Virus record (IMG/VR): IMGVR_UViG_3300027863_000016 | Location: 1-13,175 of that record | Reading direction: 5' to 3' (one strand) | Length of the DNA: 13,175 bases | Source of the DNA: a virus | Shown here: positions 1 to 13,175 of the stretch, piece after piece | Position numbering within the stretch: the stretch's first letter is position 1 | Layout: every line of letters begins with the position of its first letter | The notes under the pieces: model-generated | The model's input: the letters and a program-made list of their open reading frames with translations, nothing else | What the model was told of the DNA's origin: nothing | Database searches by the model: none | Made by a program: the position numbers and the translations under genes

Positions 1-127
1 AGGTCGCGGAGATCAGCCTCGACCCGCTCCAGGGCCTGCATGATGGACGGCCCCCGAACGACGTCGGTCAGGGCCATCCGCCGCAAGCTGGCGGCCGTCG
101 CAGTGAACGCAGCTTCCGGATTGACGG
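1..127. repeat. Terminal direct repeat, copy 1 (circularisation overlap)
   Basis: Bases 1-127 (aggtcgcggagatcagcctc...cttccggattgacgg) are identical base for base to 13049-13175. A length of 127 is typical of an assembler k-mer overlap at the ends of a circular contig. Confidence 0.95.
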
Positions 128-164
128 ACCAGATTTCGTTCGATAGAATAGAAGACGATAACAA
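1..164 (-). CDS. N-terminal part (54 codons plus 2 nt) of a 76-aa hypothetical protein whose ORF crosses the junction
   Basis: A TTG start at 164 is preceded by AGAAGGTGA and 4 nt. The frame stays open to base 1 and continues in frame at 13048. The joined product is MLSSSILSNEIWSVNPEAAFTATAASLRRMALTDVVRGPSIMQALERVEADLRDLGDRRTRTEALDRLRGWEGGRL. It is absent from the supplied ORF track because it is split by the window edge. Confidence 0.5.
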   Translation of the reverse strand, partial: MLSSSILSNEIWSVNPEAAFTATAASLRRMALTDVVRGPSIMQALERVEADLRD

Positions 165-184
165 TTTTTCACCTTCTCTTGCTG

Positions 185-215
185 CCCGCCGATGCTCCCG
201 GCGGGTTTTCGTTTT
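185..215 (+). terminator. GC-rich hairpin followed by a T-tract, oriented for the plus strand
   Basis: The stem is cccgccg (185-191) paired with cggcggg (199-205), followed by ttttcgtttt (206-215). On the minus strand the same hairpin has no downstream U-tract. Confidence 0.45.
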
Positions 216-424
216 CAGATGGCCTTTTGTTCTTCGAGCCAGCGCATTAGGCCGGCCTTGGCGATGATGTACTTTCGTCCGACGCGCAGTTTGGGGAAGC
301 CGGGTTGCTTAACAAGGTTATACGCTGCAGTTGAGTTGATCCCCATAATGCGGCCCAGTGTTTCAGGGCCGAAAAAGTCATCATTGACCTGATCGAGGTT
401 AATGCGGTTACACACACAACGCAT
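215..424 (-). CDS. Excisionase-type winged-HTH DNA-binding protein (paralog of 3333-3536)
   Basis: 69 aa. The ATG overlaps the upstream stop (TAATG at 424). The motif DFFGPxTL..I.G....AYNL....GFP.LR......II.KAGL..WLE is shared with the 3333-3536 product. Confidence 0.75.
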   Translation of the reverse strand: MRCVCNRINLDQVNDDFFGPETLGRIMGINSTAAYNLVKQPGFPKLRVGRKYIIAKAGLMRWLEEQKAI

Positions 425-606
425 TATTGATCCCTCCTGTCCCGCCTCGCCAAAAGCTCGTCCAGCACGCGCCGGGGAATTACCACCCGCTGCCCTAACC
501 TGATTGACTCGATTTCTCCCCGCTTGACCAATGCGTAGGCATGGGTACGGGAGATTCCCATTTCAGCCGCAAAGTCAGGGACATTCATGGTAGCTCTTAC
601 GGACAT
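424..606 (-). CDS. Excisionase-family (HTH_17 / MerR-superfamily) DNA-binding protein
   Basis: 60 aa. SD AAGGAGG lies 8 nt upstream of the ATG at 606. The sequence NVPDFAAEMGISRTHAYALVKRGEIESIRLGQRVVIPRRVLDELL fits the classic Xis/AlpA-type HTH pattern. Confidence 0.8.
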   Translation of the reverse strand: MSVRATMNVPDFAAEMGISRTHAYALVKRGEIESIRLGQRVVIPRRVLDELLARRDRRDQ

Positions 607-633
607 AGTTCATACCTCCTTAATTTTGAGCAT

Positions 634-660
634 AAAAAAACCACCCGAAGGATGGTTTTT
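634..660 (-). terminator. Rho-independent (bidirectional-looking) terminator after the 688-1368 gene
   Basis: The minus strand reads AAAAA-ccatcc-ttc-gggtgg-TTTTTTT, 28 nt after the stop at 688. An A-run and a T-run flank the stem. Confidence 0.7.
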
Positions 661-687
661 ATTGCTTGTGCCTAGTTGTATCTATTC

Positions 688-1368
688 TTATCTGGGCGGA
701 TTCTGGGCCAAAACCTCAACTATCTCCCCGTTGTCGTTGATGACAATATTTATGGGAAGGTATTTTGCCTCCTTTCCCTTGAAATGCCGCTCTTGATAAA
801 TCAGTATGTCGTCGGTTTCCCCGGGATGAGCGCCGAAAACGGGATGGCGTTGCCAAATGATTAATCCGGTATCCCCCAGGGAATCAAACTTTTCTGCCAA
901 GCTCCGGTTTACGCGCCAAAGAACGCTCCATAGTTCGCACGATGGTCCGGTCCCGGTAAGAACCCTGCTTCTGATTTCTGCCACAGTCTCCGGCGTCATC
1001 TTAGCACTACCGTGCATGAACCGCCATGCGGCGTAAGCCTCAGCCGGCGTTTCGTCTGGATAGTCGGCCACAATGCCAACGCCCCGACCACCGCCCTGCC
1101 GCGTGGCCTCTGGAATCAATCCGGCCGTCTCCCATCGGAGGAGTGAACGCCGGGATGTCTTGACCCCAAGTTTGTCCAAACGCTTCACAACTTCATCCGG
1201 CTTCATAATCACATCCCCGATATTCCTGAATTTGGGGTCACTCCTCCCGATTCCTTTGTGGCGAGGCTTGGCGTTTCGGGCCGCCCGGTCGGCGTTGTAG
1301 CGCACTGCCTCCCAGAACTCCTCGAACGGGTCAAAAGTTGAGTCCTGCGCAAGGCTCCCCATAGGCAT
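688..1368 (-). CDS. Hypothetical 226-aa protein with a central MerR/Xis-like HTH; stand-alone transcription unit
   Basis: SD GGGGGTGA precedes the ATG at 1368. The segment MKPDEVVKRLDKLGVKTSRRSLLRWETAGLIPEATRQGGGRG looks like a MerR-type HTH. The C-terminal about 100 aa have no motif I recognise. The gene has its own consensus promoter (1419-1447) and terminator (634-660). Confidence 0.8.
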   Translation of the reverse strand: MPMGSLAQDSTFDPFEEFWEAVRYNADRAARNAKPRHKGIGRSDPKFRNIGDVIMKPDEVVKRLDKLGVKTSRRSLLRWETAGLIPEATRQGGGRGVGIVADYPDETPAEAYAAWRFMHGSAKMTPETVAEIRSRVLTGTGPSCELWSVLWRVNRSLAEKFDSLGDTGLIIWQRHPVFGAHPGETDDILIYQERHFKGKEAKYLPINIVINDNGEIVEVLAQNPPR

Positions 1369-1418
1369 AGATCACCCCCGTTTAATCTCGCCACGACGTG
1401 TCTATATCAACCAAATTG

Positions 1419-1447: not shown

Positions 1448-1468
1448 TGCCCCTGGAAAAGATTTATT

Positions 1469-1496: not shown

Positions 1497-1580
1497 GATC
1501 TCTGCCCTTCCGCCAGCGCATCTCCCATACACCAGCCAAAGCCGCCGGCCCGCGCCGCCGTAAGCGGGAGGAGTTACACT

Positions 1581-1620
1581 TTGACACCTCGGCTGACACC
1601 TACGGGACCTGATGACACCT
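1581..1620 (+). repeat. Left cluster of three TGACACCT repeats (candidate integrase arm-type sites, P arm)
   Basis: TGACACCT occurs at 1582-1589, 1594-1601 and 1613-1620. The block tttgacacctNNNNctgacacctacggg recurs at 1822-1849. Confidence 0.6.
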
Positions 1621-1748
1621 TAAAAAAGATTAGAAATAAGGGTACCGGGTTGGGTTCCCGATACCCTGGGGGCCGCACCAGATAGGGCTTCCTTGAATTA
1701 GCTTAACATGGCTTGAAGGTCCGCCATATAATTGGGGTGGTAGAGGCC

Positions 1749-1776
1749 GCAGGTTCAAGTCCTGTCGCTCCGACCA
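1749..1776 (+). other. tRNA 3-prime-end fragment (T-arm, 3-prime acceptor strand, ACCA), probably tRNA-Pro-like; candidate attP core
   Basis: GCAGG-TTCAAGT-CCTGT forms a T stem-loop, followed by CGCTCCG-A-CCA. The implied C1:G72 pair with an A73 discriminator is typical of bacterial tRNA-Pro. No matching 5-prime acceptor strand (CGGAGCG) lies upstream, so this is a fragment and not a gene. Confidence 0.6.
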
Positions 1777-1821
1777 ATAAAATCAAGGGGTCCGGGGTTT
1801 GAAGATAGGGTAGGGGAGAGG

Positions 1822-1849
1822 TTTGACACCTAAACTGACACCTACCGGG
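1822..1849 (+). repeat. Right cluster of two TGACACCT repeats (candidate arm-type sites, P-prime arm)
   Basis: TGACACCT occurs at 1824-1831 and 1836-1843, in the same orientation and with the same 12-bp spacing as the left cluster. It lies directly next to the integrase stop at 1853. Confidence 0.6.
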
Positions 1850-1852
1850 TCT

Positions 1853-3046
1853 TCAGGTCCCGGATCTTGCTTTACCCTGACCGATCAGGGCGGCCAGCCG
1901 GTCAACGGTGCGGCGTCTGTCCTCAAGGGTAGCATGGCAGTAGGTGCCGATGGTGGTTCTGATGTCGGCGTGGCCCATGAGCACCTGTATGTTTTTCGCC
2001 GGCTCCTGGGCCTGCCCCAGCATGGTTCCGAAAGTGTGTCGGATGGTGTGGACCCGGACTTCTTCCCGCAACCCGGCCCGTTTTAGGATGTTCTTCAACC
2101 GCTTCAAAACATTCCGCGGCTCCATCGGCTGCCCCGTAGGTCTGGCGAATACGAGGTCGTTATCCTGATACTTGTCGCCGTAGAAAAGCCGCTGTTCGTT
2201 CTGTTTTACCTTGTGTGCCTTCAATACCTGGATCACCTCGGCCGGGAGGGGGATTTCCCGCTTGGAGTTTTCTGTCTTGGGGCCCGCAAACGCCAGTTTG
2301 GTTTTCCCCTCGTAAGTCTCGATCCGGTTGACCGATTCTCGAACGATAATGACGCCAGCCTTGAAGTTCACATCCTTCCACCGTAAGGCGCAAAGCTCGC
2401 CCCGGCGCACGCCGGTGTAGAGCATGGTAAAGAAATACGAGTAAAGGTAATCGTCCTTGGCGGTCTCAAGGAACTTGTCCAACTCGGCCTTATCGAAAGG
2501 CATAACTTCCTTGTGTTTGACGGCCGGGCGCTGGGTCAACTCCGCAGGGTTGAAGGGAAGTACCTTCTGCCGGACTGCGTGCTTCAGGCATCCGCTAATC
2601 AACTGGTGGAGGATGGCGATGGTGCTGCTAGAATGGGTCTTGGCCTTCTCGTTGTAGAAGTTCTGCAACATATCCGACGTTATCTTTTGAATCTCCACCT
2701 TGCCTAAAACGGGGAAGATATTCGCCCTGGCATAGGTTTTATACTTGGTGAACGTGCTTTCCCGAACCTTCGGCTTGACGTAAAGGTCTAACCAGCGATT
2801 CGTATAGTCTTCCAGGGTTGCTTTAGTCGGATCGGTATAGGTTCCTGTCTTCACCGCGACCAGATAATCTTCCCGCTTCTTTATAGCATCCTTCTGGGAA
2901 TCGGCATATAGAGTCTTTACCATCTGCTTGCCCGTCAACGGGTCAAAGCCGGTTGTGATCTTCGCCGCCCACCTGCCGTCTTTCCGCTGAAAGACACTTC
3001 CTTCGCCGCTACCGCGTTTGCCTGTCTTCTTGCTCTTGCCTGCCAT
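1853..3046 (-). CDS. int: Tyrosine site-specific integrase (phage integrase family) with an N-terminal arm-binding-type domain
   Basis: Catalytic signature residues are present: R in YTGVRRGELCALRW, HxxR in HTIRHTFGT, and Y in TTIGTYCH. The N-terminus GSVFQRKDGRWAAKIT matches the arm-DNA-binding pattern. SD AAGGGGTGA lies 5 nt before the ATG at 3046. The ORF track extends to a GTG at 3055. Confidence 0.95.
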   Translation of the reverse strand: MAGKSKKTGKRGSGEGSVFQRKDGRWAAKITTGFDPLTGKQMVKTLYADSQKDAIKKREDYLVAVKTGTYTDPTKATLEDYTNRWLDLYVKPKVRESTFTKYKTYARANIFPVLGKVEIQKITSDMLQNFYNEKAKTHSSSTIAILHQLISGCLKHAVRQKVLPFNPAELTQRPAVKHKEVMPFDKAELDKFLETAKDDYLYSYFFTMLYTGVRRGELCALRWKDVNFKAGVIIVRESVNRIETYEGKTKLAFAGPKTENSKREIPLPAEVIQVLKAHKVKQNEQRLFYGDKYQDNDLVFARPTGQPMEPRNVLKRLKNILKRAGLREEVRVHTIRHTFGTMLGQAQEPAKNIQVLMGHADIRTTIGTYCHATLEDRRRTVDRLAALIGQGKARSGT

Positions 3047-3058
3047 CCAACTCACCCC

Positions 3059-3332: not shown

Positions 3333-3536
3333 TTACCCTATGTTCTTTTCGAGCCACTTAATGAGCCCAGCCTTGGAGATGATCTTCTTTCGCGTGTTGG
3401 TTCTGAGCACCGGGAAACCGTCTACATGGCAGAGGTTGTAGGCGACGTCCCTGCTCACCCCGAGGATCTCAGCCAGTGTTGGGGGACCGAAGAAGTCTGG
3501 CGCGTCGGCCAGTTTAATGGTGCTTTTCAATGCCAT
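3333..3536 (-). CDS. Excisionase-type winged-HTH DNA-binding protein (paralog of 215-424)
   Basis: 67 aa. SD GGAGGAA precedes the ATG at 3536. It shares the DFFGPPTL...AYNL...GFPVLR...IISKAGLIKWLE motif with the 215-424 product. Confidence 0.75.
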   Translation of the reverse strand: MALKSTIKLADAPDFFGPPTLAEILGVSRDVAYNLCHVDGFPVLRTNTRKKIISKAGLIKWLEKNIG

Positions 3537-3692: not shown

Positions 3693-3896
3693 TTATTCTT
3701 TAGGTTCTGGCTTCGTGCCGGTGTATCCGCTGGCCAGGAACTCTTCAAGCGCTTCCTCGGATATGCGCCAGTTGTTCCCGAGCTTGAACGCCGGCAGCTT
3801 GCCTTCCTTGATCCACCGAAGTACGGTCCCGGTCGGAACAATCAGGTACTTGCCGGCCTGCTCCGTGGTGTACAGCTTCGTGGGTAGCGGGGCCAA
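3693..3896 (-). CDS. Excisionase-family (HTH_17) DNA-binding protein
   Basis: 67 aa. The TTG start immediately follows the recombinase TAA, with SD GGAAGGAGGTGG 5 nt upstream. LYTTEQAGKYLIVPTGTVLRWIKEGKLPAFKLGNNWRISEEALEEFL is the classic pattern. Confidence 0.8.
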   Translation of the reverse strand: MAPLPTKLYTTEQAGKYLIVPTGTVLRWIKEGKLPAFKLGNNWRISEEALEEFLASGYTGTKPEPKE

Positions 3897-4643
3897 TTAA
3901 GCCACCTCCTTCCCGTGTAGACTGTTCTTCAGGACGTTGCTGACGGTGCTGGCGTACCACTTGCTGCCGCCTTTCTTCGTGGGAACCTGTTCCGCGGTCA
4001 GCCGGCGGGCAATCTCGTTGATGGAGGCGCCGGCCACCTTCATGTCCAGGATCCGCTTGACGGTTTCCTGCTCGGCCTCGTTCTCCACCAGGGCGTCACC
4101 GTTCCGGTCGAAACCCAGCGGGGTGGGGCCGTAAACTTCGCCGTGGGCCTTCTTATGGGCCAGTGCCTGGGTGGTACGCTCGGCGATCATGTTCCGCTCC
4201 AACTCGGCAAAGCCGGCGGCCATGGTGATGAAGAACCGGCCCATAGCGGTTCCGGTGTTGATGGCCGTGCCGCCCATGTCGATCAAGTGGAGGCTGACGC
4301 CAGCTTCGTCCCATGCCCGGGTCTGGTTCAAGCAGTCGGCCGCATCCCGGAAAAGCCGGTCCAGTTTCAGGGCCACGATGTTCTTAACACCGCGGTCCGT
4401 GACCTGGGTAAGAAGCTCCGCGCCGCCGGGCCGCGTTGCCAGTTCTTTGCTGGCGCTCACGCCTTCGTCGCGGACGACAGCCACCAGTTCCAGGCCGGCC
4501 ATGGTGCAGTATGCGCGAATCCGTTCTTCCTGCGCCGCCAGGGAAACGCCTTCGGTGGCTTGTTCGGTGGTACTGACCCGGACATATCCCACGGCCTGGG
4601 TAGCGGTAGCCTGCCCGGTGGTTTTCTTGGCGGCCTTTTTCAT
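3897..4643 (-). CDS. Serine recombinase (resolvase/invertase catalytic domain plus a recombinase domain; no zinc-ribbon or coiled-coil extension)
   Basis: AVGYVRVSTTEQ carries the catalytic Ser, and LKLDRLFRD is the DRLxR motif. The C-terminal part GPTPLGFDRNG...EAEQETVKRI...GASINEIARRL...KGGSKWYASTVSNVLKN resembles the recombinase domain of large serine recombinases. The protein ends at 248 aa. SD GGGAGG lies 8 nt before the ATG. Confidence 0.9.
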   Translation of the reverse strand: MKKAAKKTTGQATATQAVGYVRVSTTEQATEGVSLAAQEERIRAYCTMAGLELVAVVRDEGVSASKELATRPGGAELLTQVTDRGVKNIVALKLDRLFRDAADCLNQTRAWDEAGVSLHLIDMGGTAINTGTAMGRFFITMAAGFAELERNMIAERTTQALAHKKAHGEVYGPTPLGFDRNGDALVENEAEQETVKRILDMKVAGASINEIARRLTAEQVPTKKGGSKWYASTVSNVLKNSLHGKEVA

Positions 4644-4677
4644 GTGAACAACCTCCCGGTAACTTTTTCTTGTACTT

Positions 4678-4706
4678 ATTATACATCAACTTCACACATG
4701 GGTCAA
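4678..4706 (-). promoter_or_regulatory. Strong sigma-70/SigA-type promoter for the recombinase-to-integrase gene string
   Basis: The minus strand reads TTGACC (4706-4701), a 17-nt spacer, then TATAAT (4683-4678), 35 nt upstream of the ATG at 4643. Confidence 0.7.
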
Positions 4707-4795
4707 TAGCTCCTTCGTACATAACCGGACGGTCGTGTATAAACTTTTTAAGGGTAGGGGCAGGGGGGAGTGCTGAAATCCACCTCCACCGTTTG

Positions 4796-4840
4796 CCAGG
4801 GAGCGGGTCATCAGGGTCCGGTTATATCTCCGCTCCCTGG
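4796..4840. repeat. Perfect 11-bp inverted repeat enclosing the XRE stop codon
   Basis: ccagggagcgg (4796-4806) and ccgctccctgg (4830-4840) are separated by 23 nt. No U-tract follows on either strand. Confidence 0.8.
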
Positions 4841-5040
4841 TCCGGCAGATACTCAAAAAGGTCCCCGGGCTGACAATCTAAGGCCTCGCACAGCTTATCC
4901 ATCTGGCCCACCTCAATACGCTTGACGGTGCCCAGCCACAAGGCGGATACCGTGTTGGGCCGGATGCCAGTCTTTTCCGCTAGGGCCTTCTTCGTCAGCT
5001 TGTGCCGCCCCATGAGTTCGGCCACCTTGATGTTAATCAA
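4822..5040 (-). CDS. XRE/Cro-CI family HTH transcriptional regulator (short, YozG-like)
   Basis: 72 aa with a TTG start. LTKKALAEKTGIRPNTVSALWLG...MDKLCEALDCQPGDLFEY is the canonical short XRE pattern. Confidence 0.9.
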   Translation of the reverse strand: MINIKVAELMGRHKLTKKALAEKTGIRPNTVSALWLGTVKRIEVGQMDKLCEALDCQPGDLFEYLPDQGAEI

Positions 5041-5084
5041 TTTTTTATTCCCCTTCCCTGTGTGTAATAACCCCTGTCGTTTTG

Positions 5085-5114
5085 ATTATAACAGGGAACG
5101 ATATTTATACGCAA
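5085..5114 (-). promoter_or_regulatory. Candidate promoter for the XRE gene
   Basis: The minus strand reads TTGCGT (5114-5109), an 18-nt spacer, then TATAAT (5090-5085). The -10 box is enclosed by the inverted repeat CCCTGT (5072-5077) / ACAGGG (5091-5096). Confidence 0.5.
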
Positions 5115-5197
5115 CCCAAGGCCGTAAAATATCTATACGGGGTATTGACGATTATCTACAGGGGGTCTAAAATATCGGCAAGGGATAACCGATATCG
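5099..5197. promoter_or_regulatory. Repeat-rich divergent control region (candidate operators)
   Basis: ATATTTATACG (5101-5111) and ATATCTATACG (5129-5139) are direct repeats 28 bp apart. CGATAT/ATATCG half-sites occur at 5099-5104 and 5172-5177, and a CGATATCG palindrome at 5190-5197. These overlap both divergent promoters. Confidence 0.5.
5145..5173 (+). promoter_or_regulatory. Sigma-70/SigA-type promoter for the only plus-strand gene
   Basis: TTGACG (5145-5150), a 17-nt spacer, then TAAAAT (5168-5173). Confidence 0.65.
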
Positions 5198-5212
5198 ACA
5201 TAAAGGGGACGC

Positions 5213-5320
5213 ATGGCGAGGAGGTGGTCACCGGATAGACAAGGAAGTCCCCCGGCACCCCGCTGGCGGCCAACGGGCCGTCAAGAAATCGACAGCGAAG
5301 GAAGGGTGTATCGTGCTTAG
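5213..5320 (+). CDS. Possible 35-aa leader ORF overlapping the start of the ImmA-like gene
   Basis: The ATG at 5213 follows AAAGGGGA. The product is MARRWSPDRQGSPPAPRWRPTGRQEIDSEGRVYRA. Its TAG (5318-5320) overlaps the GTG at 5313. There is no recognisable motif. Confidence 0.15.
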   Translation: MARRWSPDRQGSPPAPRWRPTGRQEIDSEGRVYRA

Positions 5321-5834
5321 ATTCCTGGAGACCGTCGCTCACTACTACCGTTTGGAGATACGGTATGAGAACCTGCAGAATGAGCACCCCGGGCGTCTCG
5401 GAGTAGCCCGGCCTGCCAAAGGGCTAATTGTCCTAGATATATCCATTCGCGGGACCCGACAGGAGAAATGCGTTTTGGCCGAGGAGATTGGACATTGCCT
5501 TTATCCCCCCGTTGCAGATCATCGGTTGTTTTACAGCAAGAGGTTTTACACTCTCGATTCACATCAAAAGCGTGATCTGCGCCGCGATGTTTGGAGAGAG
5601 GAGCGGGCCGCCCGTTGCTGGGCTGCCGATGTTTTGATCCCTGACTATTGTTTTTGGGACTTCTTTGATATCGGTCCCCATGAAATGGAAGAATGGTGTG
5701 AGCGCTTCGATGTTGAGCCATGGCTTGTGGCTTTTAAGATTGCCTACCTACATAGTAAGGGGCGCCAGTCTGGCGGTCGGTTCTTTAAGTGGCACCAGGC
5801 CGTAAAGGGGTCATGTGTGCGTGCGCTGGCGTGA
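5313..5834 (+). CDS. ImmA/IrrE-like (M78 metallopeptidase fold) protein with a variant metal-binding motif
   Basis: The likely start is the GTG at 5313, preceded by GAAGGAAGGG and 6 nt. The ORF track start at 5082 lies upstream of the promoter. LIVLDISIRGTRQEKCVLAEEIGHCLYP...EERAARCWAADVLIPDYCF aligns by eye with the ImmA pattern (...FTLAHELGH...E.EAN.FAA.LLMP), but HExxH reads EEIGH here. Confidence 0.6.
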   Translation: MLRFLETVAHYYRLEIRYENLQNEHPGRLGVARPAKGLIVLDISIRGTRQEKCVLAEEIGHCLYPPVADHRLFYSKRFYTLDSHQKRDLRRDVWREERAARCWAADVLIPDYCFWDFFDIGPHEMEEWCERFDVEPWLVAFKIAYLHSKGRQSGGRFFKWHQAVKGSCVRALA

Positions 5835-5857
5835 GACATGCCGGATATTAAGGAGCG

Positions 5858-5877
5858 GGCCCGGGGGTACCCGGGCC
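5858..5877. terminator. 8-bp perfect GC hairpin between convergent genes
   Basis: ggcccggg (5858-5865), loop ggta, cccgggcc (5870-5877). No clear U-tract follows, so termination function is uncertain. Confidence 0.35.
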
Positions 5878-5950
5878 TTCGCTGTCCGTAAGACTCTTAA
5901 GAAAAGAGGACTATCGTTCCATGTCCCGCTCGATACCTTCACATAGTCGT

Positions 5951-6553
5951 CTACTTATCGTAAACCTTTCCGTATTGAACCTCTTTTAAGGTGATAAGAT
6001 AATAATTCTGGTATTGGCTAAGGTCGGAATTAAGTTGGTCCTGGCTGACATCGCCAGTAAGATATTCTGCCATATCGCTTACTGCATTAAGGGCAAAATC
6101 GGTCGTTGTAGCAACGTCAGATTGAATAAAACACCATGTTGGGTTAATCCCATTTGCAATGTCGGCAGACGCAGCACCCTGGGGCGGCGCAACGGCATCG
6201 CCTTTTGCCGATAAGGCTCTTGCTTCCTGCCCCTCAAAGGAGAACCAGCCAGGGTCTTCGGCACTAATTTGCTGATTTGTACCTGGTTGTAGCCCTTGAA
6301 AGCGTTCGTAGGCCTCGTTAAATTGGTCGTTTGTCCATAACAGGACGGCCTCTAATTCGTTCTGGGATAGAAGTTTGGGCGGCGCTGGAGTTGGCGCCGT
6401 CTTCGTCTGTGCCGATTTTCCCGATGCGTGCGATGGCGGGGAAGAGGTAGGAGCGGAGGGCGTCGATACCGAGGTATGCGTGCCCCCGCACCCAACCAGA
6501 ATCACCATGAGGAAAACAAGGATTGCCGCCCAGCCAATAGCGCGTTTAGCCAT
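5951..6553 (-). CDS. Secreted lipoprotein (200 aa) with a Pro/Ser/Thr-rich linker
   Basis: The ATG at 6553 is preceded by AAAGGAGGGG. The signal peptide is MAKRAIGWAAILVFLMVILVGC with lipobox LVGC, followed by GGTHTSVSTPSAPTSSPPSH...TAPTPAPP. The upstream extension in the ORF track (to 6661) runs through the TMP terminator. Confidence 0.8.
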   Translation of the reverse strand: MAKRAIGWAAILVFLMVILVGCGGTHTSVSTPSAPTSSPPSHASGKSAQTKTAPTPAPPKLLSQNELEAVLLWTNDQFNEAYERFQGLQPGTNQQISAEDPGWFSFEGQEARALSAKGDAVAPPQGAASADIANGINPTWCFIQSDVATTTDFALNAVSDMAEYLTGDVSQDQLNSDLSQYQNYYLITLKEVQYGKVYDK

Positions 6554-6711: not shown

Positions 6712-8727
6712 TTAATAGACCGTAAGCACCTCGGCTGGCCGGCCGTAGGATATCTTGCGGCCCGTCCGCCCCAACTCCTTGATTACCTCCCGAGCTATCG
6801 CCTTCGGATCCTGGTTGGACTGGATGATGATGTTGATGTCTCCGTTATGCTGGCCGCCATAGAGCTTTGGCATCGACGAGCCCGGAATAGCGGCGGCGGC
6901 CATTTGCGAGGCCGCCCGCGATACGTAGTGCAGGTTGCCGGTCATGCCCTGAGCGAAGCCCAAGGCCGTGTATTGGCCGAACTGGGCCATGAGCCTCGAT
7001 GGCGAACTGATCCCCAGGAAATGCTTCACCGGGTCCACGACATTGCTCCTGAAGAAGTTGGACACCTGGGTCTTGAGCCAGCTTTCCAGCCTTACGATGC
7101 CCTGGACGAAGCCCTTGATGAAGCTGTCGCCCCACTGCATGGCCTCGGCCGGGAGATTCCTGAAGAACTCCTGAACTATGGCCCACTCGGTCGTGACCCA
7201 TTTGACCGTGGCCGCCCAATGCCCCCGGATGTTTCCCCAGTTATTGCGCCAGGCCAGCCAGAGGGCGGCCACGATGAGGATTAGGCCCTCTATTACCCAC
7301 AGGATAGGCCCGCCGGCTACCTGAACGGCAATGAGCGGGCCGACAAGCCCGCTGAAGGCTGTACCGATAGCCCTGATTACGGTGACGATCAGCCCCAGGT
7401 TCTTCAGGTATCCGATGCCGGCCCCAAGCAGCATCAGTGGCCCGACGACAAGCATAGCGGCAGATGCTATCGAAGTAAAAACAACGATGAATCGCATCAG
7501 CGGCGAGTGGGTTTGGACAAAACGCAAGACCACCGCCAGTACCTTGTTAAGGTTGGTCAGGAGTGGCAAGAGCGCTGGCGCTACGTTCTTGCCGAACGCC
7601 GTAAATATGTCGTGCAGCGTAGATACGAGCTGCTTTGTCTGCCCACCCCACGTTGCATTTTGTGCGGCCTGCATCTGGTTCACGGTCGGCGACGTTCGCA
7701 TCTGTTGCTGTACTCCTGTGTACAGACCCGCCGCCCCCGGGCTGGCCATTATCATGGCTACCCGCTCCCCCTGAAGCCCGAAGATGTTCTTCAGTAGCGG
7801 CACCATCACATTCGCGTCGCCGCGGAACCGCTTGCTGAAGTCCTGCATGATCTTGACCGATTCCGGGATCCCCACGAAAGCACCCTGGGCGTTCTCAAAC
7901 ACGGAGTGCCCGTTATGGACGAAGCCGGCCGCTATCATGGATTCGTCGGCCTTCTTGCCGGAGGAGCCGTAGATGCTCCGCGTAAGGAAATCCTGAAAGT
8001 TCGTTCCACCCCGGCCGGAGCCAAGGCCCATCCGGGAAAGCCATGCCGTGGTTGCAAGAGCATCCTGGAAACTCATGCCCATTACCTTTCCTGTGGTTGC
8101 GACGTACTTAAAGGTTGTGGCGAACTCGCTGGCCGTGTCGTGCGTGTGCATCAGCGCGGCATTCAGTTGGTTAAGAAACGGGGAGACCTGGGCCCCTGAG
8201 TAAAGTTGGTACTGGTGGGCCATTTTTACGGCGTCCGCTGTCACATCGGGAGCGTTTTCACCCTTTTGGAGCTTTTGCACGTCGGCAAAGTTGACGTACT
8301 CCTGCAAAAGATCGGGGTTTAACACCGCCTGTTTTGTCAGGCCAGAGGTAGCCATTGCCTGCATAATGCCGCCTACATCGGTAGCGGCGAATATAGTCGG
8401 GATGCCGGTAGTCTGCGCTAGGTTGATGGCCTTCTCGAACTCGGCATTGGTCAGCCCAAGGGCGTTCTTGACGCCCATCATGGACGCTTGAAGTTGGCCG
8501 TATGCATCAGCAGCCTTGACCAGTCCATAGGCCAGCCCCGCGCCGACTACGGTCAAGCCGGCCCCCACCATTGCCATGTTCTTCAAGCTGGTGAGTTTGG
8601 CTTGCATGGCCTCAGCTTGTGCGCTCATGGTTCCCATCTGTGCGCTCATCTTAGTCATTGGGCCTGTCATGTAGTCGTAAGCCCGGATGGCCACGCCAAC
8701 CTCAAAGGTTTTCTCCAACATACCCAC
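6712..8727 (-). CDS. Phage tail tape measure protein (TP901-type core region)
   Basis: 671 aa. The N-terminal helical part has GLTNAEFEKAINLAQTTGIP...ATDVGGIMQAMATSGL and GMSFQDALATTAWLSRMGLGSGRGGTNFQDFL, which fits the tape-measure core pattern. A cluster of hydrophobic helices spans about residues 420-500. The C-terminal LGISSPSRLMAQFGQYTALGFAQG motif is typical. The GTG start at 8727 abuts the upstream TAG. Confidence 0.85.
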   Translation of the reverse strand: MGMLEKTFEVGVAIRAYDYMTGPMTKMSAQMGTMSAQAEAMQAKLTSLKNMAMVGAGLTVVGAGLAYGLVKAADAYGQLQASMMGVKNALGLTNAEFEKAINLAQTTGIPTIFAATDVGGIMQAMATSGLTKQAVLNPDLLQEYVNFADVQKLQKGENAPDVTADAVKMAHQYQLYSGAQVSPFLNQLNAALMHTHDTASEFATTFKYVATTGKVMGMSFQDALATTAWLSRMGLGSGRGGTNFQDFLTRSIYGSSGKKADESMIAAGFVHNGHSVFENAQGAFVGIPESVKIMQDFSKRFRGDANVMVPLLKNIFGLQGERVAMIMASPGAAGLYTGVQQQMRTSPTVNQMQAAQNATWGGQTKQLVSTLHDIFTAFGKNVAPALLPLLTNLNKVLAVVLRFVQTHSPLMRFIVVFTSIASAAMLVVGPLMLLGAGIGYLKNLGLIVTVIRAIGTAFSGLVGPLIAVQVAGGPILWVIEGLILIVAALWLAWRNNWGNIRGHWAATVKWVTTEWAIVQEFFRNLPAEAMQWGDSFIKGFVQGIVRLESWLKTQVSNFFRSNVVDPVKHFLGISSPSRLMAQFGQYTALGFAQGMTGNLHYVSRAASQMAAAAIPGSSMPKLYGGQHNGDINIIIQSNQDPKAIAREVIKELGRTGRKISYGRPAEVLTVY

Positions 8728-9138
8728 CTACATCGCCCCTTTCACACTCAGTCCGGCCTTTTCGGCGCAGGTCTTGCAGTAACTCGGCGGCTGACTATCG
8801 ACCAGGTGAGCGGGGTGGTGGCCCGTGCCGGCGTAGCACTCCGGGCAGACCCGCCGGCTGCAGGCTGCACATGAGACGCACACCGGAACCTCTTCCCCAC
8901 AAGCCTGGCAGCGCTCGGTCTTCACGGCCATCTTCCGGTACCGGTCCCGGGCCGCGGCGAAGTGCCGCTTGAAGGTGTGCCGGTCGAAGCCCGGGAGGGT
9001 ATTGCACCCGGAGCCCTTCAATGCGTTCCAGATTATCCCCTCGACCTGTTTTGGGGTCTTGCCGATAGTGCACCAGCGCCGCAGGCCTTCGGTGTAGTCA
9101 CGGACAGTCTCTTCGTTAAGATCCAAGGCCTTCACCAC
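8728..9138 (-). CDS. Cys-rich (multi-CxxC, zinc-ribbon-like) hypothetical protein
   Basis: The frame is open from about 9240. The preferred start is the GTG at 9138 or the TTG at 9126, both preceded by AAAGGTGGTGAAGG and overlapping the upstream stop at 9116. The C-terminus is CQACGEEVPVCVSCAACSRRVCPECYAGTGHHPAHLVDSQPPSYCKTCAEK. The stop abuts the TMP start. The true start is uncertain. Confidence 0.6.
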   Translation of the reverse strand: MVKALDLNEETVRDYTEGLRRWCTIGKTPKQVEGIIWNALKGSGCNTLPGFDRHTFKRHFAAARDRYRKMAVKTERCQACGEEVPVCVSCAACSRRVCPECYAGTGHHPAHLVDSQPPSYCKTCAEKAGLSVKGAM

Positions 9139-9370
9139 CTTTCGTACTGTTTTCTGCTTCCTGCAGGGCCTTCTCAAACTGGGCCCGGTCTTCGGCATCG
9201 AGCAGGTCCGCAATGCCGAGTTCCTTTGCCCCGCGAAGGATTACCGCCAACCCATCGCAAGGGAGTAGCCGGGACGGCGCACATGCCGAATGGAATCGAC
9301 CGCGGTTTACCTGACATTTCCACCCCTCCTTTGATGCTTTGGCAGCAAAGTTGTCATTATCACCCCCCAT
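9116..9370 (-). CDS. Hypothetical protein (84 aa)
   Basis: The ATG at 9370 overlaps the TerL stop (ATGGGGGGTGA). The C-terminal half GLAVILRGAKELGIADLLDAEDRAQFEKALQEAEN looks protein-like, but the SD is weak. An alternative 47-aa ORF in another frame has a much stronger SD (AAAGGAGGGG, ATG near 9297). Confidence 0.4.
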   Translation of the reverse strand: MGGDNDNFAAKASKEGWKCQVNRGRFHSACAPSRLLPCDGLAVILRGAKELGIADLLDAEDRAQFEKALQEAENSTKGGEGLGS

Positions 9371-10805
9371 ATCCCTGGTTGACCACCAGGTCAAACAAAC
9401 TCGTGTTGTACATGCTTTCAAGCAGTTCTTCCCGGGAAACCGTCATCGTCGAAAACTCAACCTTTCTTTGTCGGGAAGGAGCGAACGCCAACACCACCGC
9501 ATCTGCCCGGTCAGGCGACGCCAGGCCCCGCTTCTTCATGTCCTTTTTGGGCTCCAGGGTGATCTTGCCCTTGCTGGTGATGGTGTACTTCCGGGTGGTC
9601 AATTGCCCCACCAAGTCATCGTCGTTAACCAGTTGCGGCTCCTCATCTTGCAGCAGGTCCCGCAAGTGGGCCCATGTCTCAGCGCCCCAGTTCTCGTAGT
9701 GCTCAGAGTCGGTCGCCGTCCCCCCGTTGTGGCAATCAACAATCTCTATAGCCAGGTCCTGTTCCTTAACCACTTCCCGGCATCGGTCGGTCACCGCGCC
9801 ACCAACCCCGTCGTCATCGATCCTGACCACGCATTTGGGCTTGCCGTACTTGGCCATCAGCTTCTTGGCAGCCGCCAGAACCTGGCCGCTCGTGACCATG
9901 GTGTCCTGCTTCGAGTGCGCCTCCTGGTGGATTTGCTTCAGCCCAATCCTGGCCGCAATCACCGTCTCATCGTCACCGAACCGGGCCACGTCAACGCCCA
10001 ACTCCAGGGAGCCATCAGCCTCTATTTCCCGCATGGTAGCGGCTTCGACGATATCCAGAGGGATGAACGTGTCAGGCTCGGCCTTTGGAAATTCGCCCAG
10101 GACGCGAACCCGGTAGACGTCGGAGTCCTCGTGGTATTTCCTTTTGAGCCGTTCGGCGTATTCTTTCGTGACCCGGGGGCTGTCCAGGCATGATACTCGC
10201 TTCGTCCAGTACAGGGCCCGGTCCTTGAAAAAGGCATCGTGGAAGACGCCGCTGTTCTTCGTTGGGTTGCTGCACAAAAGGAGCTTGGCGTCCGCCGTGG
10301 TCAGCGCGCCCTCAATGGCTTCAAAGATCCCATCGGCAACGCCGGAGGCTTCGTCTATGATGAACAAGATGTGGTCTTCATGGAAGCCAGCCAAGTTTTC
10401 CGGCTTGTTGCTGGTCCTGGCCACCGCGAACCACCGAGAAGCATGTTGCTTGCGGACAATGCGCGTCTTCTGCCACTCAAACTCCGCTTTCAGGGCCGGC
10501 GCGTTCTCGATCCACTTGGCTGCCTCCGGCCAGAGAACGTCAAAGAGTTGCTGGCGCGTTGGAGCGGTACACGGGATCTTGGGAAAGGGCCGGGTAAACA
10601 TAAACCACAGCAGGACCCATGCTTCCAGGGCCGTCTTGCCTACGCCATGACCGGAGCGGATGGCAAGCCGCGGGTGGCGGCCGATGGCGGCCAGGGCCTC
10701 GTCTTGCCACGGGTCCGGATCGGCATGGAGTACGCTGCGAACAAAAAGGCCTGGCTCATTCGCCAGGCGCCGAAATGTGGCCACGGCCTCTTTACTCGCT
10801 GACAT
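9360..10805 (-). CDS. terL: Terminase large subunit (ATPase plus nuclease)
   Basis: Walker A is RSGHGVGKT and Walker B is ILFIIDEASGV. LGEFP and the C-terminal RNaseH-like nuclease motif GVDVARFGDDETV are present. The gene overlaps the upstream small-terminase candidate. The start is either the ATG at 10805 or an upstream TTG/GTG (10814/10811). Confidence 0.9.
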   Translation of the reverse strand: MSASKEAVATFRRLANEPGLFVRSVLHADPDPWQDEALAAIGRHPRLAIRSGHGVGKTALEAWVLLWFMFTRPFPKIPCTAPTRQQLFDVLWPEAAKWIENAPALKAEFEWQKTRIVRKQHASRWFAVARTSNKPENLAGFHEDHILFIIDEASGVADGIFEAIEGALTTADAKLLLCSNPTKNSGVFHDAFFKDRALYWTKRVSCLDSPRVTKEYAERLKRKYHEDSDVYRVRVLGEFPKAEPDTFIPLDIVEAATMREIEADGSLELGVDVARFGDDETVIAARIGLKQIHQEAHSKQDTMVTSGQVLAAAKKLMAKYGKPKCVVRIDDDGVGGAVTDRCREVVKEQDLAIEIVDCHNGGTATDSEHYENWGAETWAHLRDLLQDEEPQLVNDDDLVGQLTTRKYTITSKGKITLEPKKDMKKRGLASPDRADAVVLAFAPSRQRKVEFSTMTVSREELLESMYNTSLFDLVVNQGYGG

Positions 10806-11337
10806 CCTCACCAACCCAAACTGCCTGCAGGATGTTGGTCAGGTGGTCTAGGGCATCCGCCTGCTTGGACGCTGGATCGTCGCCCAGAAGCTCCAATTTC
10901 GTCCTCATGGCCTGGCGAATCTCCGCAGCGGTTTTCTCGTGGAGCGCAACTAGGCTCATTGGCGGCCGTGGTACCCTCCTCTCTGCCGGTTCCTCCTGCG
11001 GTTTCAGAATATCGGTGAGCCACGCCCTGGCCTGCTGGTGCAGGCTATGGTTGCCCTGGATAACGCTGTCCAGGATCTCCAGGTCGGACAGCCGCTTTTC
11101 AACGGCCTCCTGCATGACCGCCTGGGATTGCTGATACTGTTCCCGAACAGCCGCAGGAACGTCGAAGTGCTCCCTGAAATGTCGGCCGATGGCCGGGTTA
11201 GAAATCGACTCACCCATCTCGGCCAGCCGGCGTTCAACCTCCCGGTAGCGTACACCGTCTTGCTTGACCCATTGTTCGATTTGCGCCCGGTGGGGGCTGT
11301 GACAGACTTTACAGCGTCCAATGACCACCTCAGCCAT
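10792..11337 (-). CDS. terS: Candidate terminase small subunit (N-terminal CxxC plus HTH-like segment, helical C-terminus)
   Basis: The ATG at 11337 follows GAAGGAGTGA and 5 nt. GRCKVCHSPHRAQIEQWVKQDGVRYREVERRLAEMGESISNPAIGRHFREH resembles phage small-terminase and DNA-recognition proteins. It overlaps terL by 14 nt. The call rests mainly on position. Confidence 0.55.
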   Translation of the reverse strand: MAEVVIGRCKVCHSPHRAQIEQWVKQDGVRYREVERRLAEMGESISNPAIGRHFREHFDVPAAVREQYQQSQAVMQEAVEKRLSDLEILDSVIQGNHSLHQQARAWLTDILKPQEEPAERRVPRPPMSLVALHEKTAAEIRQAMRTKLELLGDDPASKQADALDHLTNILQAVWVGEDVSE

Positions 11338-11371
11338 CTGAATCACTCCTTCGCGAACTACCATTTTCTTG

Positions 11372-11407
11372 ATGCAAAGTGCAACGTTGCAAAACTGTGC
11401 ATTGCGA
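11372..11407. promoter_or_regulatory. TGCAA-repeat / palindrome cluster upstream of the terminase genes
   Basis: A perfect 12-bp palindrome TGCAACGTTGCA sits at 11380-11391, flanked by further TGCAA/TGCA copies. On the minus strand a weak TTGCAA-18-GAAAAT promoter can be drawn. Confidence 0.4.
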
Positions 11408-11414
11408 CGCCGGT

Positions 11415-11702
11415 TTACGGCAAGCCTTCATCACGGACCACCGGGGCTTTCCCTAACCACTCGATGAACGCCGTCAAGTCATCCTCGCCACCCTCAGCTA
11501 GGTATTCCCGCAGCTTGTTTGCGTACCAGTCTGCGTAATGGACCGTCTCGCGTCCTTCCGCGTGTTCGACCAGGTCCTTGGTTATGGCGTTGCAGGCATC
11601 CGGATACCGTATTACGGCCTGGACCCACCGCCGTTCAAGCTCGAAGTTTATTGTCTTCCTTGTCACCAGGGCTTTAAGGCGCCGCCTGTTGTTCACATTC
11701 AT
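11415..11702 (-). CDS. Hypothetical protein (about 95 aa)
   Basis: The start is the ATG at 11702 or the in-frame GTG at 11696, after ACGGAGGG. The product is MNVNNRRRLKALVTRKTINFELERRWVQAVIRYPDACNAITKDLVEHAEG...FIEWLGKAP. I recognise no family. It sits where late-gene activators often lie, which is inference only. Confidence 0.55.
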   Translation of the reverse strand: MNVNNRRRLKALVTRKTINFELERRWVQAVIRYPDACNAITKDLVEHAEGRETVHYADWYANKLREYLAEGGEDDLTAFIEWLGKAPVVRDEGLP

Positions 11703-11868
11703 CCCTCCGTTTGGACCTGGCATCCGTTGAGCGGGTCCGCTTTTCATACTTACCCCTGCGGATTGCCCGCTTCCAGATTTCCGCGTCATGCGCCAGAAGG
11801 CTTATCAACTCCGCTTCTGTCAGATAGAGTTCACATTTAGTCAATTTGAGCGCGATCATCTTTTCCAT
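11674..11868 (-). CDS. Hypothetical protein (64 aa)
   Basis: The ATG at 11868 follows GGAGGTGG and 7 nt. The product is MEKMIALKLTKCELYLTEAELISLLAHDAEIWKRAIRRGKYEKRTRS... with a basic tail. It overlaps the next gene by about 25 nt. Confidence 0.55.
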   Translation of the reverse strand: MEKMIALKLTKCELYLTEAELISLLAHDAEIWKRAIRRGKYEKRTRSTDARSKRRDECEQQAAP

Positions 11869-12028
11869 GCTCAGACCACCTCCGGTAAGGTCATTTGTTG
11901 CGTCATCTGGCCGGTGTCCCGCTCCGGTCCTGGATTGATCCGCCGGGCGCTGGACACCCGCATTCATGGGCGGCGAAGGATTCCTCCACCTGGTCATAGG
12001 CGCTCAGGACGGCCGCCGCAAAGAGTCG

Positions 12029-12985
12029 TCAGAGGAACAGGTCTTCATCGGTGAACTCGTTGCCATGGACAGCGCTGGTGTCCTGGTCGGGGCATTTGTT
12101 GGGTCGGCATGGGGTCGGGCCGGGCCAGCTTGATGTTGGGAAGTTGCCCGACTGGTGGCGCGTTGCTCCAGTTGCAGATCCCTCTTCGTCTAGCCAGCCT
12201 TTGGCGTTCAACCACGTCGATGGGTATGGAATAAAGCGGCCACCTTCCCGTTTCCATGATGCGGAACGCTTGGCCCGCTCCAGCCCTGCCATGATGGCTG
12301 TGAAAAGCTGCTCGTCCGGCTTGATCTTTTCCCAGGTTTTCTCGGCCTTGCCTTTAGACTTTTTCGTGGGGTAGGCCGCCCAGAACCAGGAGAATGCTTC
12401 CTGCCGGTCAAAAACCTTACCCCCCACACCCCCCTGGTTCCTAGTTCCTGGTTTTAAGTTCCTAGTTTCGGTTATAGTTTCGGTTCCTAGTTCTAGGCCG
12501 ACGTGCGGCAGACGTGTCTCTGACGTGTCTCCGACAAGTCGGCTACATGGCAACAATTCGTCGTGGATCAAGTACCGGCATTTGTAGCGCTGCCGCTTAC
12601 CGTCCTCGTTGAACTCCTCGCACCATTCCAGCCAGGACGGAAGGGGTATGGTGGCTTTATTTGGCGGCGTCGGGTTATCAAGAGTCTGGTGCCGATGGAA
12701 ATTCACAAGGAAAAGGCACCGTTTCCCGGCGGCCATGTACGGCACCAGTTTTCCGAGCTCAACCAGTTGATCCCGCCATCCAGCCAAAACCTCGGTCGTG
12801 ACGTCTTCATCCAGAGGCGAGGCAAATAAGTGGACTTTGAACGCGAATGGACTGTCTTCAAGACAGCCTGAATCGTCCGCCAATTGCCAGAGGCCGACGT
12901 AAAACCAGCGCATATCCCGGCGCCACTGCAGTAGGTCTGGATCATTCCAGAAGGCCGCCTTGATCTGACGGTTATGCAATCTCAC
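12029..12985 (-). CDS. Replication initiator (phage replisome-organizer-like N-terminus; C-terminal FWxxYPxK...W...PxPxTWLN domain)
   Basis: The N-terminus IKAAFWNDPDLLQWRRDMRWFYVGLWQLADDSGCLED matches the replisome-organizer N-domain pattern. The C-terminus FSWFWAAYPTKKSKGKAEKTWEKI...WKREGGRFIPYPSTWLNAKGWLDE is a recurring phage/plasmid replication-protein motif. The GTG at 12985 overlaps the upstream TGA (GTGA), and an ATG at 13003 is also possible. Confidence 0.7.
   Translation of the reverse strand: MRLHNRQIKAAFWNDPDLLQWRRDMRWFYVGLWQLADDSGCLEDSPFAFKVHLFASPLDEDVTTEVLAGWRDQLVELGKLVPYMAAGKRCLFLVNFHRHQTLDNPTPPNKATIPLPSWLEWCEEFNEDGKRQRYKCRYLIHDELLPCSRLVGDTSETRLPHVGLELGTETITETRNLKPGTRNQGGVGGKVFDRQEAFSWFWAAYPTKKSKGKAEKTWEKIKPDEQLFTAIMAGLERAKRSASWKREGGRFIPYPSTWLNAKGWLDEEGSATGATRHQSGNFPTSSWPGPTPCRPNKCPDQDTSAVHGNEFTDEDLFL
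12437..12531. repeat. Iteron-like repeat array inside the initiator gene (candidate origin of replication)
   Basis: GTTCCTAGTT occurs at 12437-12446, 12458-12467 and 12483-12492. TAGTTTCGGTT occurs twice between 12463 and 12485. GACGTG-type 11-bp-phased repeats occur at 12500, 12511 and 12522, the last two as identical GACGTGTCTC. The array encodes the low-complexity linker between the two protein domains. Confidence 0.6.
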
Positions 12986-13175
12986 AGCCGACCGCCCTCC
13001 CATCCCCTCAGCCGGTCCAATGCCTCAGTCCTGGTCCGCCGGTCGCCCAGGTCGCGGAGATCAGCCTCGACCCGCTCCAGGGCCTGCATGATGGACGGCC
13101 CCCGAACGACGTCGGTCAGGGCCATCCGCCGCAAGCTGGCGGCCGTCGCAGTGAACGCAGCTTCCGGATTGACGG
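12982..13175 (-). CDS. C-terminal part of the junction-crossing 76-aa ORF (partial at the window edge; 13049-13175 duplicates 1-127)
   Basis: This is the same frame as feature 1-164 after joining the ends. The TGA at 12984-12982 overlaps the GTG start of the initiator gene. Confidence 0.5.
   Translation of the reverse strand, partial: VNPEAAFTATAASLRRMALTDVVRGPSIMQALERVEADLRDLGDRRTRTEALDRLRGWEGGRL
13049..13175. repeat. Terminal direct repeat, copy 2 (circularisation overlap)
   Basis: Identical to bases 1-127. Confidence 0.95.

Follow-up and report, generated by a model that had tools for sequence, protein, structure and literature searches.

Classical phage-inducible chromosomal islands (PICIs) of the SaPI type measure around 13 kb (10–15 kb range) and combine an integrase gene beside the attachment site with Xis- and XRE-type regulators, a replication initiator with an adjacent or internal origin and a small terminase subunit (TerS), depending on a helper phage for virion parts, for de-repression by one of its proteins and for packaging in its virions. 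They often carry capsid-size redirection genes and, to our knowledge, encode neither a large terminase subunit (TerL) nor a tape measure protein (TMP). Capsid-forming PICIs (cf-PICIs) are integrative islands of similar size that contain both terminase subunits together with their own capsid, portal, protease/scaffold and head–tail connector genes. PLEs (phage-inducible chromosomal island-like elements) from Vibrio cholerae, whose helper is ICP1, are small and integrative, lack a terminase of their own as well as capsid and most tail genes, and use a large serine recombinase. Chimeric tails are reported for them in which the TMP encoded by the PLE takes the place of the helper’s; a tail assembly chaperone and a baseplate hub are PLE-encoded as well (PMC12987554). 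The same study reports putative tmp genes for PLE-like elements and for some cf-PICIs (PMC12987554, Extended Data Fig. 10; Nature 2026). EPIP satellites (Extracellular Prophage-Inducing Particles; bioRxiv 2025, Mycolicibacterium) combine TerS with a TMP proposed to alter helper tails and are reported to carry head-to-tail adaptor, stopper, scaffold and capsid-related genes and a serine integrase, but no TerL (PMC12822802). For marine VEIMEs, which reach 16.8 kb, concatemeric packaging into full-size heads is documented (PMC9618062). Here, we describe IMG/VR virus record IMGVR_UViG_3300027863_000016 (13,175 nt, positions 1–13,175 of the record; hereafter, the window), which holds a 13,048-bp mobile element of phage origin that is predicted to integrate and to replicate on its own, with predicted genes for TerS, TerL and a TMP.

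In its working, the element is closest to PICI- and PLE-type satellites, but it lies outside each family as these are defined. It shares with SaPI-type PICIs its size, an integrase beside an attachment site, Xis- and XRE-type regulators, an initiator with a likely internal origin and TerS, and presumably helper dependence for virion parts; it differs from them in having TerL and a TMP and in an XRE-type gene divergent from an ImmA-like gene, with nearly all other genes on one strand. Like the PLEs, it has its own TMP and is devoid of capsid and most tail genes, whereas it differs from PLEs as described by its TerS and TerL, its tyrosine integrase, its phage O-like replication initiator and its relatives among Bacillota phages, with a TMP closest to those of Bacillota myoviruses. 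Its serine recombinase is truncated, the intact recombinase being the tyrosine integrase, and neither a chaperone of the related type nor, in Pfam and PHROG scans of the called genes, a baseplate hub family was found. Both terminase subunits are shared with cf-PICIs, but the capsid, portal, protease/scaffold and connector genes of the latter were not detected, nor were capsid-morphogenesis families including cpm/ppi-like ones in Pfam and PHROG scans of the open reading frames (ORFs). EPIPs are likewise small, with a packaging function, a TMP and a recombinase; in contrast to them, the element carries TerL and a tyrosine integrase as the intact recombinase and is without connector or capsid genes. 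VEIMEs and PICMIs overlap in monomer size, carry integrase, replication and packaging genes and are expected to fill each helper head with several units. VEIMEs, however, are marine, mostly have only TerS-like genes and are defined by concatemeric virion reads, while the present element is known from short-read assemblies alone. P4-like satellites are characterized by a primase–helicase (alpha), capsid-size and transactivation genes (sid, psu, delta) and a helper-type cos site; the element has an O-like initiator rather than a primase–helicase, and sid-, psu- or delta-type genes were not matched in PHROG and Pfam scans. The apparent source lineages of TerS/TerL and TMP are Bacillota ‘terminase B’ myoviruses (phiCD27/phiMMP02-like phages and prophages of Biomaibacter, Desulfosporosinus and Alicyclobacillus), whose genomes or prophage contigs of ~39–62 kb contain head genes and a full tail module that the element lacks.

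An earlier sequence-only reading had proposed a satellite of new architecture. Its implied premise that a satellite with its own tail-length protein would be unprecedented is outdated, as PLEs (PMC12987554) and EPIPs (PMC12822802) possess a TMP. As far as the satellite papers covered here show, a full terminase combined with a TMP, without a capsid or other virion genes, is undescribed. The features that bear on this point are listed by window coordinates:

1–127 and 13049–13175, unstranded: assembly overlap of exact identity, marking a circular or concatemeric 13,048-bp unit.
10792–11364, minus strand: TerS candidate of 181–190 aa, 43% identical to the prophage L001 ORF that immediately precedes TerL.
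9360–10814, minus strand: TerL of 484 aa, intact (phrog_2, E=2e-45).
8728–9126 (the ORF could reach 9213), minus strand: orphan of 132 aa with a helical N-terminal part and four CxxC motifs.
6712–8727, minus strand: TMP of 671 aa, full length and of myovirus type (PF10145, E=1e-16; phrog_28, E=3e-42).
5951–6553, minus strand: predicted lipoprotein of 200 aa with signal peptide, lipobox LVGC and a Ser/Pro/Thr-rich linker.
12029–13003, minus strand: phage-type replication initiator (Rep) of 318–324 aa (phrog_9474, phrog_270 and phrog_1408, replication initiation, E=1e-22 to 1e-16).
1853–3055, minus strand: tyrosine integrase of 400 aa (PF00589, E=7e-31; PF14659; phrog_1, E=8e-76).
1580–1848, plus strand: attP region with a core mimicking a tRNA 3′ end (1734–1776) and flanking TGACACCT repeats.

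The circular unit was recovered repeatedly. Besides the window (a JGI contig with a 127-nt terminal overlap), it is represented by contig Ga0078972_1013758 of JGI 3300005573 (13,169 bp, that is, 13,048 bp plus a 121-nt overlap) and by MEGAHIT contig k141_1616938 of ENA ERZ27247228 (L020; 13,189 bp, with a 141-nt overlap). These three assemblies, made with k-mers of 121, 127 and 141, describe one circle at 100% identity with unlike contig start points. Agreement of three k-mers on one 13,048-bp unit shows that the circle is real, be it as such or in tandem or permuted form. Fragments with 100% identity were also present in further Yellowstone data, namely in JGI 3300009503 (L017), in ENA ERZ27247235 (L021 and L025) and in Logan assemblies of SRR5248875 and SRR6049666 (three fragments). 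No internal repeat longer than 30 nt that could mediate false circularization exists in the unit, and the frame signal from GC content at third codon positions (GC3), like gene integrity, is unbroken across every module border. None of the recovered contigs of the element showed host flanks or a break at the attP core, so an excised, episomal or concatemeric form appears to dominate. Data set Ga0078972 (3300005573) was described as a Yellowstone metagenome (PMC8986864), while 3300009503 is the data set of another investigator (PMC9599585). A thermophilic Bacillota bacterium of the Yellowstone hot springs is the probable host.

The TerL call was upheld. TerL is 78% identical to TerL of a Biomaibacter acetigenes prophage and 51% identical to ‘terminase B’ of the Clostridioides myoviruses phiCD27/phiMMP02. 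Its Walker A (GVGKT) and Walker B (IIDEAS) motifs and the acidic nuclease residues fall in invariant alignment columns, and it retains 139 of 142 conserved columns, defined as at least 95% conserved across 119 homologues, with ordinary members scoring in the same range. The C-terminal 39 aa (residues 446–484; 9360–9476) are unlike those of the closest relatives, to which the protein is 78% identical elsewhere. We rejected a deletion or fusion scar at this position because the more distant members P0062 and P0087 have similar natural tails; swapping of the tail could be an adaptation to another portal partner. The TerS candidate gave weak matches to Mu gp27 (E=3e-5) and the TerS family phrog_426 (E=3e-4).

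The TMP aligns from residue 1 with TMPs of Alicyclobacillus phage MMB025 and prophage L018. Identity to P0011 is 46% over 99% of the length, with the alignment to P0019 likewise covering 99%, and 110 of 116 family-conserved columns are retained. Its relatives, with up to 56% amino acid identity, occur among Desulfosporosinus and Alicyclobacillus. An N-terminal truncation, hinted at by PHROG profile coordinates, was rejected, since the alignment begins at residue 1 of related TMPs. Both TerL and TMP are thus bona fide and complete. Most TMP homologues align over residues 1–532 only, and the protein looks like a mosaic of two parts, the C-terminal 140 aa being the variable one. Logan unitigs of SRR5248875 and SRR6049666 both end at window position 7125, corresponding to TMP residue ~534. 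A match to the C-terminal part was found in L029 (559–1200), a 1.4-kb JGI contig (Ga0207433) that encodes a TMP C terminus with 83% amino acid identity to the window TMP and 85% nucleotide identity over the last 535 nt of the gene. Similarity ends ~15 nt before the TMP stop codon, and in L029 a gene for a LysM-domain tail protein follows. Among normal myovirus sequences, L029 is the nearest relative of the TMP, and it offers a lead to a helper or parent lineage.

Between TerL and TMP, where related phages have ~10 kb of head and tail genes, the element carries only the orphan at 8728–9126. Apart from itself, no homologue exists in a set of 5.8 billion proteins; Pfam, PHROG, NCBIfam and PADLOC yielded no family match, and its AlphaFold2 (AF2) model (pLDDT 64) had no Foldseek match. 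We also considered a tail assembly chaperone and rejected it, as the orphan is unlike the chaperone family of related phages and has no structural match. The predicted lipoprotein, without a family match in Pfam, NCBIfam or PADLOC, is encoded directly after the TMP gene. Positions of this post-TMP type are frequent sites of morons or superinfection-exclusion genes.

Across all called genes, Pfam, PHROGs and NCBIfam provided no match to capsid, portal, protease, connector, sheath, tube, baseplate, holin or endolysin, and tblastn of the portals that follow related TerLs gave no match in the window. Called genes occupy 83% of the unit, nearly all on the minus strand and in frames backed by GC3 periodicity; the longest gap, 484 bp, lies at attP. 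Six ORFs (791 aa in total) had no assignment. The largest, of 226 aa (688–1368), has 392 homologues, of which 15 of 41 scanned match Pfam MerR. Its AF2 model (pLDDT 75) had as sole meaningful Foldseek match the MerR regulator HiNmlR (probability 0.85), and Foldseek revealed no capsid or portal fold in it. tblastx detected no portal or tail gene remnants in the spacers; candidate remnants were dismissed as wrong-frame or insignificant extensions. Because TerS, TerL and TMP are all that is kept of the virion programme, the element is predicted to be unable to build a particle alone.

These data confirm the observation made in the sequence-only reading and support its interpretation in part. Its 13,048-bp circular unit agrees with the exact 127-nt overlap and the same circle in two further assemblies, and its view that the unit is too small for an autonomous tailed phage agrees with the three remaining virion genes. 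Hidden Markov model and structure searches upheld the inventory of integrase with attP, serine recombinase, four Xis-type helix–turn–helix (HTH) genes and an XRE/ImmA-like switch, and came back blank for the capsid, portal, tail and lysis genes for which it had seen no room, with 83% of the unit already occupied by called genes. The TerS candidate gained from its match to the L001 ORF and weak family matches, the complete TerL with Walker A/B and nuclease motifs from the invariant motifs and 139 retained columns, the TMP call from its family matches and end-to-end alignment with myovirus TMPs, and the initiator with internal iterons from PHROG replication-initiation matches and repeat arrays within the ORF.

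Regarding replication, Rep is ~30% identical over 84% to genes for initiators or ‘primosomal protein I’ of Pseudomonas and Gordonia phages; a Rep search of IMG/VR returned 0 loci. Iteron arrays within rep at 12433–12535 (AACTAGGAAC-like, about four times; GAGACACGTC, twice) likely constitute the origin. For integration, the attP core at 1734–1776 (...GCAGGTTCAAGTCCTGTCGCTCCGACCA) resembles the part of a tRNA that runs from the variable loop through the T-arm to the 3′ acceptor strand, with CCA at its end. It gave a weak, partial tRNA model match (13.8 bits) covering T-arm and acceptor, while ARAGORN found no complete tRNA in the window and a search for the core in IMG/VR gave 0 matches. TGACACCT arm-type repeats are located on both sides (1580–1606, 1613–1623 and 1822–1848). 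From a GGG triplet upstream of the core, a tRNA-Pro gene is a plausible target.

In a search for relatives of the same architecture, of which none was found, we looked for TerL in IMG/VR (15 loci), GTDB genomes (three distant loci) and the 5.8-billion-protein set (2189 matches, none above 78% except the element itself), and for TMP in IMG/VR (two loci), JGI metagenome contigs (one locus, L029) and the protein set (27 matches). Whole-unit megablast against plasmids gave no match. The TerL donor lineage was missing among the 27 best TMP matches. With TerL closest to a Biomaibacter prophage and TMP to Desulfosporosinus and Alicyclobacillus relatives, the two genes appear to stem from different phage lineages, which suggests a mosaic origin rather than one parent. 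The early gene order xis–rep–terS–terL is common to the element and prophage L002.

We tentatively regard life as a helper-dependent satellite as the most likely one. Integration at a tRNA gene would proceed through the tyrosine integrase and attP, of which the parts are present, and excision would be aided by the Xis-type HTH_17 proteins. Rolling-circle or theta replication could start from the iterons inside rep. The element’s TerS would recognize its own pac site, and TerL would pump concatemeric element DNA into procapsids of a co-resident myovirus with a compatible portal. Mu and SPP1 package by headful. Since related TerLs are paired with Mu- or SPP1-type portals, headful packaging is probable here, and a head of ~39–52 kb would therefore take up ~3–4 units. 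By analogy with PLE11, PLE1 and PLE4 (PMC12987554), the element’s TMP would be built into helper tails. In favour of a satellite, we counted that TerL and TMP are complete to their natural ends with module borders coinciding with gene ends, that the slots adjoining TerL and TMP hold unrelated intact genes (the Cys-rich orphan and the lipoprotein) instead of wreckage, and that integration, regulation and replication modules are all present. The repeatedly closed circle, the spacers free of remnants, the separate affinities of TerL and TMP and the precedents among PLEs, EPIPs and VEIMEs weigh in the same direction. The circular assembly is compatible with concatemer packaging, although not diagnostic of it. 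Whether these genes define a satellite type of their own is a stronger claim and a doubtful one: such a type would have TerS, TerL and its own TMP without capsid, portal, connector or other tail genes, take over packaging and tail-length or ejection functions of helpers in thermophilic Bacillota and, as judged from the variant TMP described below, exchange TMP modules with them, the element being its first representative. The element is put forward as a candidate new variant of satellite.

Several observations weigh against a satellite. Among TerL relatives of at least 55% identity with flanks extending past terL, all seven tested for a portal (prophages L001 and L002 together with L003, L033, L034, L035 and L036) have it directly downstream and head genes after it. 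TMP relatives with visible context all belong to a contractile-tail module of sheath, tube, chaperone, TMP, LysM protein and baseplate, and a tail assembly chaperone of the type accompanying such TMPs was not found in the element. No second element with TerL next to TMP was detected in IMG/VR, GTDB genomes, JGI metagenome contigs, plasmids or the 5.8-billion-protein set, and among JGI and ENA data the TerL relatives examined as co-resident helpers (P0038, P0052 and P0053) were normal phages from other samples. Except for L025, all copies are 100% identical and from one geographic setting. The serine recombinase corresponds to no more than the N-terminal half of one of the large type, the ImmA-like protein has a degenerate motif (EEIGH where HExxH is expected, the first His being gone), and four HTH_17 genes plus two recombinases look like patchwork. 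On account of the truncated recombinase and the missing His, part of the element appears to be decaying. For the satellite proposal of the sequence-only reading, the real circle and the gene set are as described, while no sign of helper dependence, of virion packaging or of an integrated copy was found, nor a second element or a helper.

A serious and quite possible alternative is, therefore, that the element descends from a temperate myovirus as a defective or cryptic remnant (a ‘miniphage’), a plasmid-like circle in which TerL and TMP were kept by chance or recency and not for use in a parasitic life cycle. At least two deletions or illegitimate recombinations would have removed the stretches from portal to tail chaperone and from LysM protein to lysis, and the remnant would still excise and replicate. 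The gravity of this alternative stems from the lack of any relative with this architecture in the collections searched, from the standard gene order in the complete phages and prophages that are closest to its phage-like genes, and from the two decayed-looking genes; the L002-like order xis–rep–terS–terL and the redundant HTH_17 and recombinase genes point the same way. A singleton lineage from one habitat type would be expected just as much if the element arose from a temperate myovirus by deletion or as a mosaic. Such a derivative is harder to reconcile with natural termini of TerL and TMP, borders at gene ends, spacers free of gene fragments, gene affinities that indicate a mosaic and an abundance sufficient for circle closure in three assemblies and for recovery in at least two independent projects (3300005573 and 3300009503) of different principal investigators. 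We judge improbable a domesticated, non-transmissible island that is not packaged itself and uses TMP, lipoprotein and terminase as decoys or for interference with tail assembly or packaging of related myoviruses. Interference with the tail assembly of helpers is on record for satellite and PICI proteins (Tai systems, PMC11364771; Rta of PLE11, PMC12987554), the post-TMP lipoprotein could serve superinfection exclusion and the co-occurring TMP allele suggests that related phages or elements share the habitat, but a decoy role would hardly account for a complete TerS and TerL pair whose catalytic residues are conserved, and PADLOC gave no convincing defence match, the best being capP-like for the ImmA-like protein (E=2e-4). 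An assembly artefact, in which a larger phage genome was collapsed or chimerically circularized across a repeat, is very improbable. Some assemblies do break in the element at recurring positions (12005–12014, 7897–7916 and 7125), and L025 carries a different 5′ part of the TMP gene, so a co-occurring related sequence could confuse assemblers; yet three overlap lengths with differing starts converge on one circle, no internal repeat exceeds 30 nt, and frame signal and genes run continuously over the module borders.

If the element is a working satellite, it extends the remodelling of helper tails through an own TMP, shown so far only for Vibrio PLEs, to a new host group, the thermophilic Bacillota, and a new environment. 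The same would apply to a second recent idea, the carriage of a full terminase by satellites that have no capsid, and pac/TerS/TerL plus TMP would stand as a minimal natural set of stolen phage genes. As a mere defective derivative, it would be one of the ordinary outcomes of prophage decay, yet still useful as a caution that circular, virus-like 13-kb contigs with a terminase must not be taken for complete phage genomes.

A second variant was evident in ENA ERZ27247235. L025 matches the window without a difference over ~9 kb, from ~7916 down to 12005, a stretch that takes in the lipoprotein, regulator, integrase and rep genes. Its first 235 nt (L025:1–235, against window 7916–8150), in contrast, encode another TMP segment with 63% amino acid identity over residues ~193–273. 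The window-type segment is present in the same assembly on the separate contig L021 (7897–12014). L017 and L021, from JGI 3300009503 and ENA, respectively, both end exactly at 12014 and L025 ends at 12005, creating a 10-nt overlap (12005–12014) in the spacer between rep and a 64-aa ORF. The simplest reading of these contigs is a co-occurring sibling that shares the backbone but differs in the module that extends from the end of rep to TMP residue ~273, of which 12005–12014 is most likely the other border. We favour a boundary between two co-occurring variants over a filled-in cohesive end at 12005–12014, given that the contig pair shows the same behaviour at its other end, inside TMP. An exact-pattern scan of IMG/VR for the other TMP variant gave 0 matches. 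A short sibling module would be the first hint of a family, whereas a full virion module could be the parent or the helper.

The remaining features concern recombination, regulation and small ORFs:

215–424, minus strand: HTH_17 (Xis/AlpA-type) gene 1, 69 aa (PF12728, E=1e-6).
424–606, minus strand: HTH_17 (Xis-type) gene 2, 60 aa (PF12728, E=4e-10; phrog_66, excisionase/regulator).
688–1368, minus strand: MerR-like winged-HTH regulator, 226 aa, the largest protein without a family name (homologue Pfam matches; AF2/Foldseek).
3333–3536, minus strand: HTH_17 (Xis-type) gene 3, 67 aa (PF12728, E=5e-6).
3693–3896, minus strand: HTH_17 (Xis-type) gene 4, 67 aa (PF12728, E=2e-15; excisionase PHROGs).
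3897–4643, minus strand: truncated large serine recombinase, 248 aa (PF00239, E=5e-35).
4822–5040, minus strand: XRE/Cro-type HTH regulator (HTH_26), 72 aa (PF13443, E=3e-20).
5041–5312, unstranded: divergent control region between xre and the ImmA-like gene, with promoter-like sites and inverted repeats (consensus matches only).
5313–5834, plus strand: ImmA/IrrE (M78)-like protein, 173 aa, the sole plus-strand gene (phrog_87, metallo-protease, E=1e-12).
11415–11696 and 11674–11868, minus strand: two small overlapping ORFs of 93 and 64 aa (gene calls in L020).
12982–13175 and on to circle position 164, minus strand: 76-aa ORF across the window end (gene call at L020:11820–12050).

The 93-aa and 64-aa ORFs had no family match in Pfam, PHROGs, NCBIfam or PADLOC, and the 76-aa ORF had none in Pfam or PHROGs. 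In prophage L002, an ORF that precedes rep/terL shares 32% identity with HTH_17 gene 1. The Pfam match of the ImmA-like protein to PF06114 is weak (E=0.009, below the cut-off) and, given its motif, the protein may be catalytically dead. Its gene is divergent from xre, unlike co-transcribed ImmR/ImmA modules. For the gene-poor stretch 4640–5950, a non-coding RNA was considered and rejected; the only Rfam match, mir-H1 (E=0.32), is a chance one, and the stretch holds the xre and ImmA-like genes. The serine recombinase has its catalytic domain and, of the Recombinase domain, the first half, and is without a zinc-ribbon or coiled-coil part: PF07508 is matched only at profile positions 2–52 of 102, CcrB at 10–231 of 542 and XisF at 2–188 of 465, and PDB matches are confined to the catalytic domain. 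At 3893–3900, its TAA stop is followed by an in-frame TTG start of HTH_17 gene 4, a junction that may be a deletion scar or a recoding site. Read-through at this position would fuse the catalytic domain to an HTH, similar to the layout of small resolvases and invertases.

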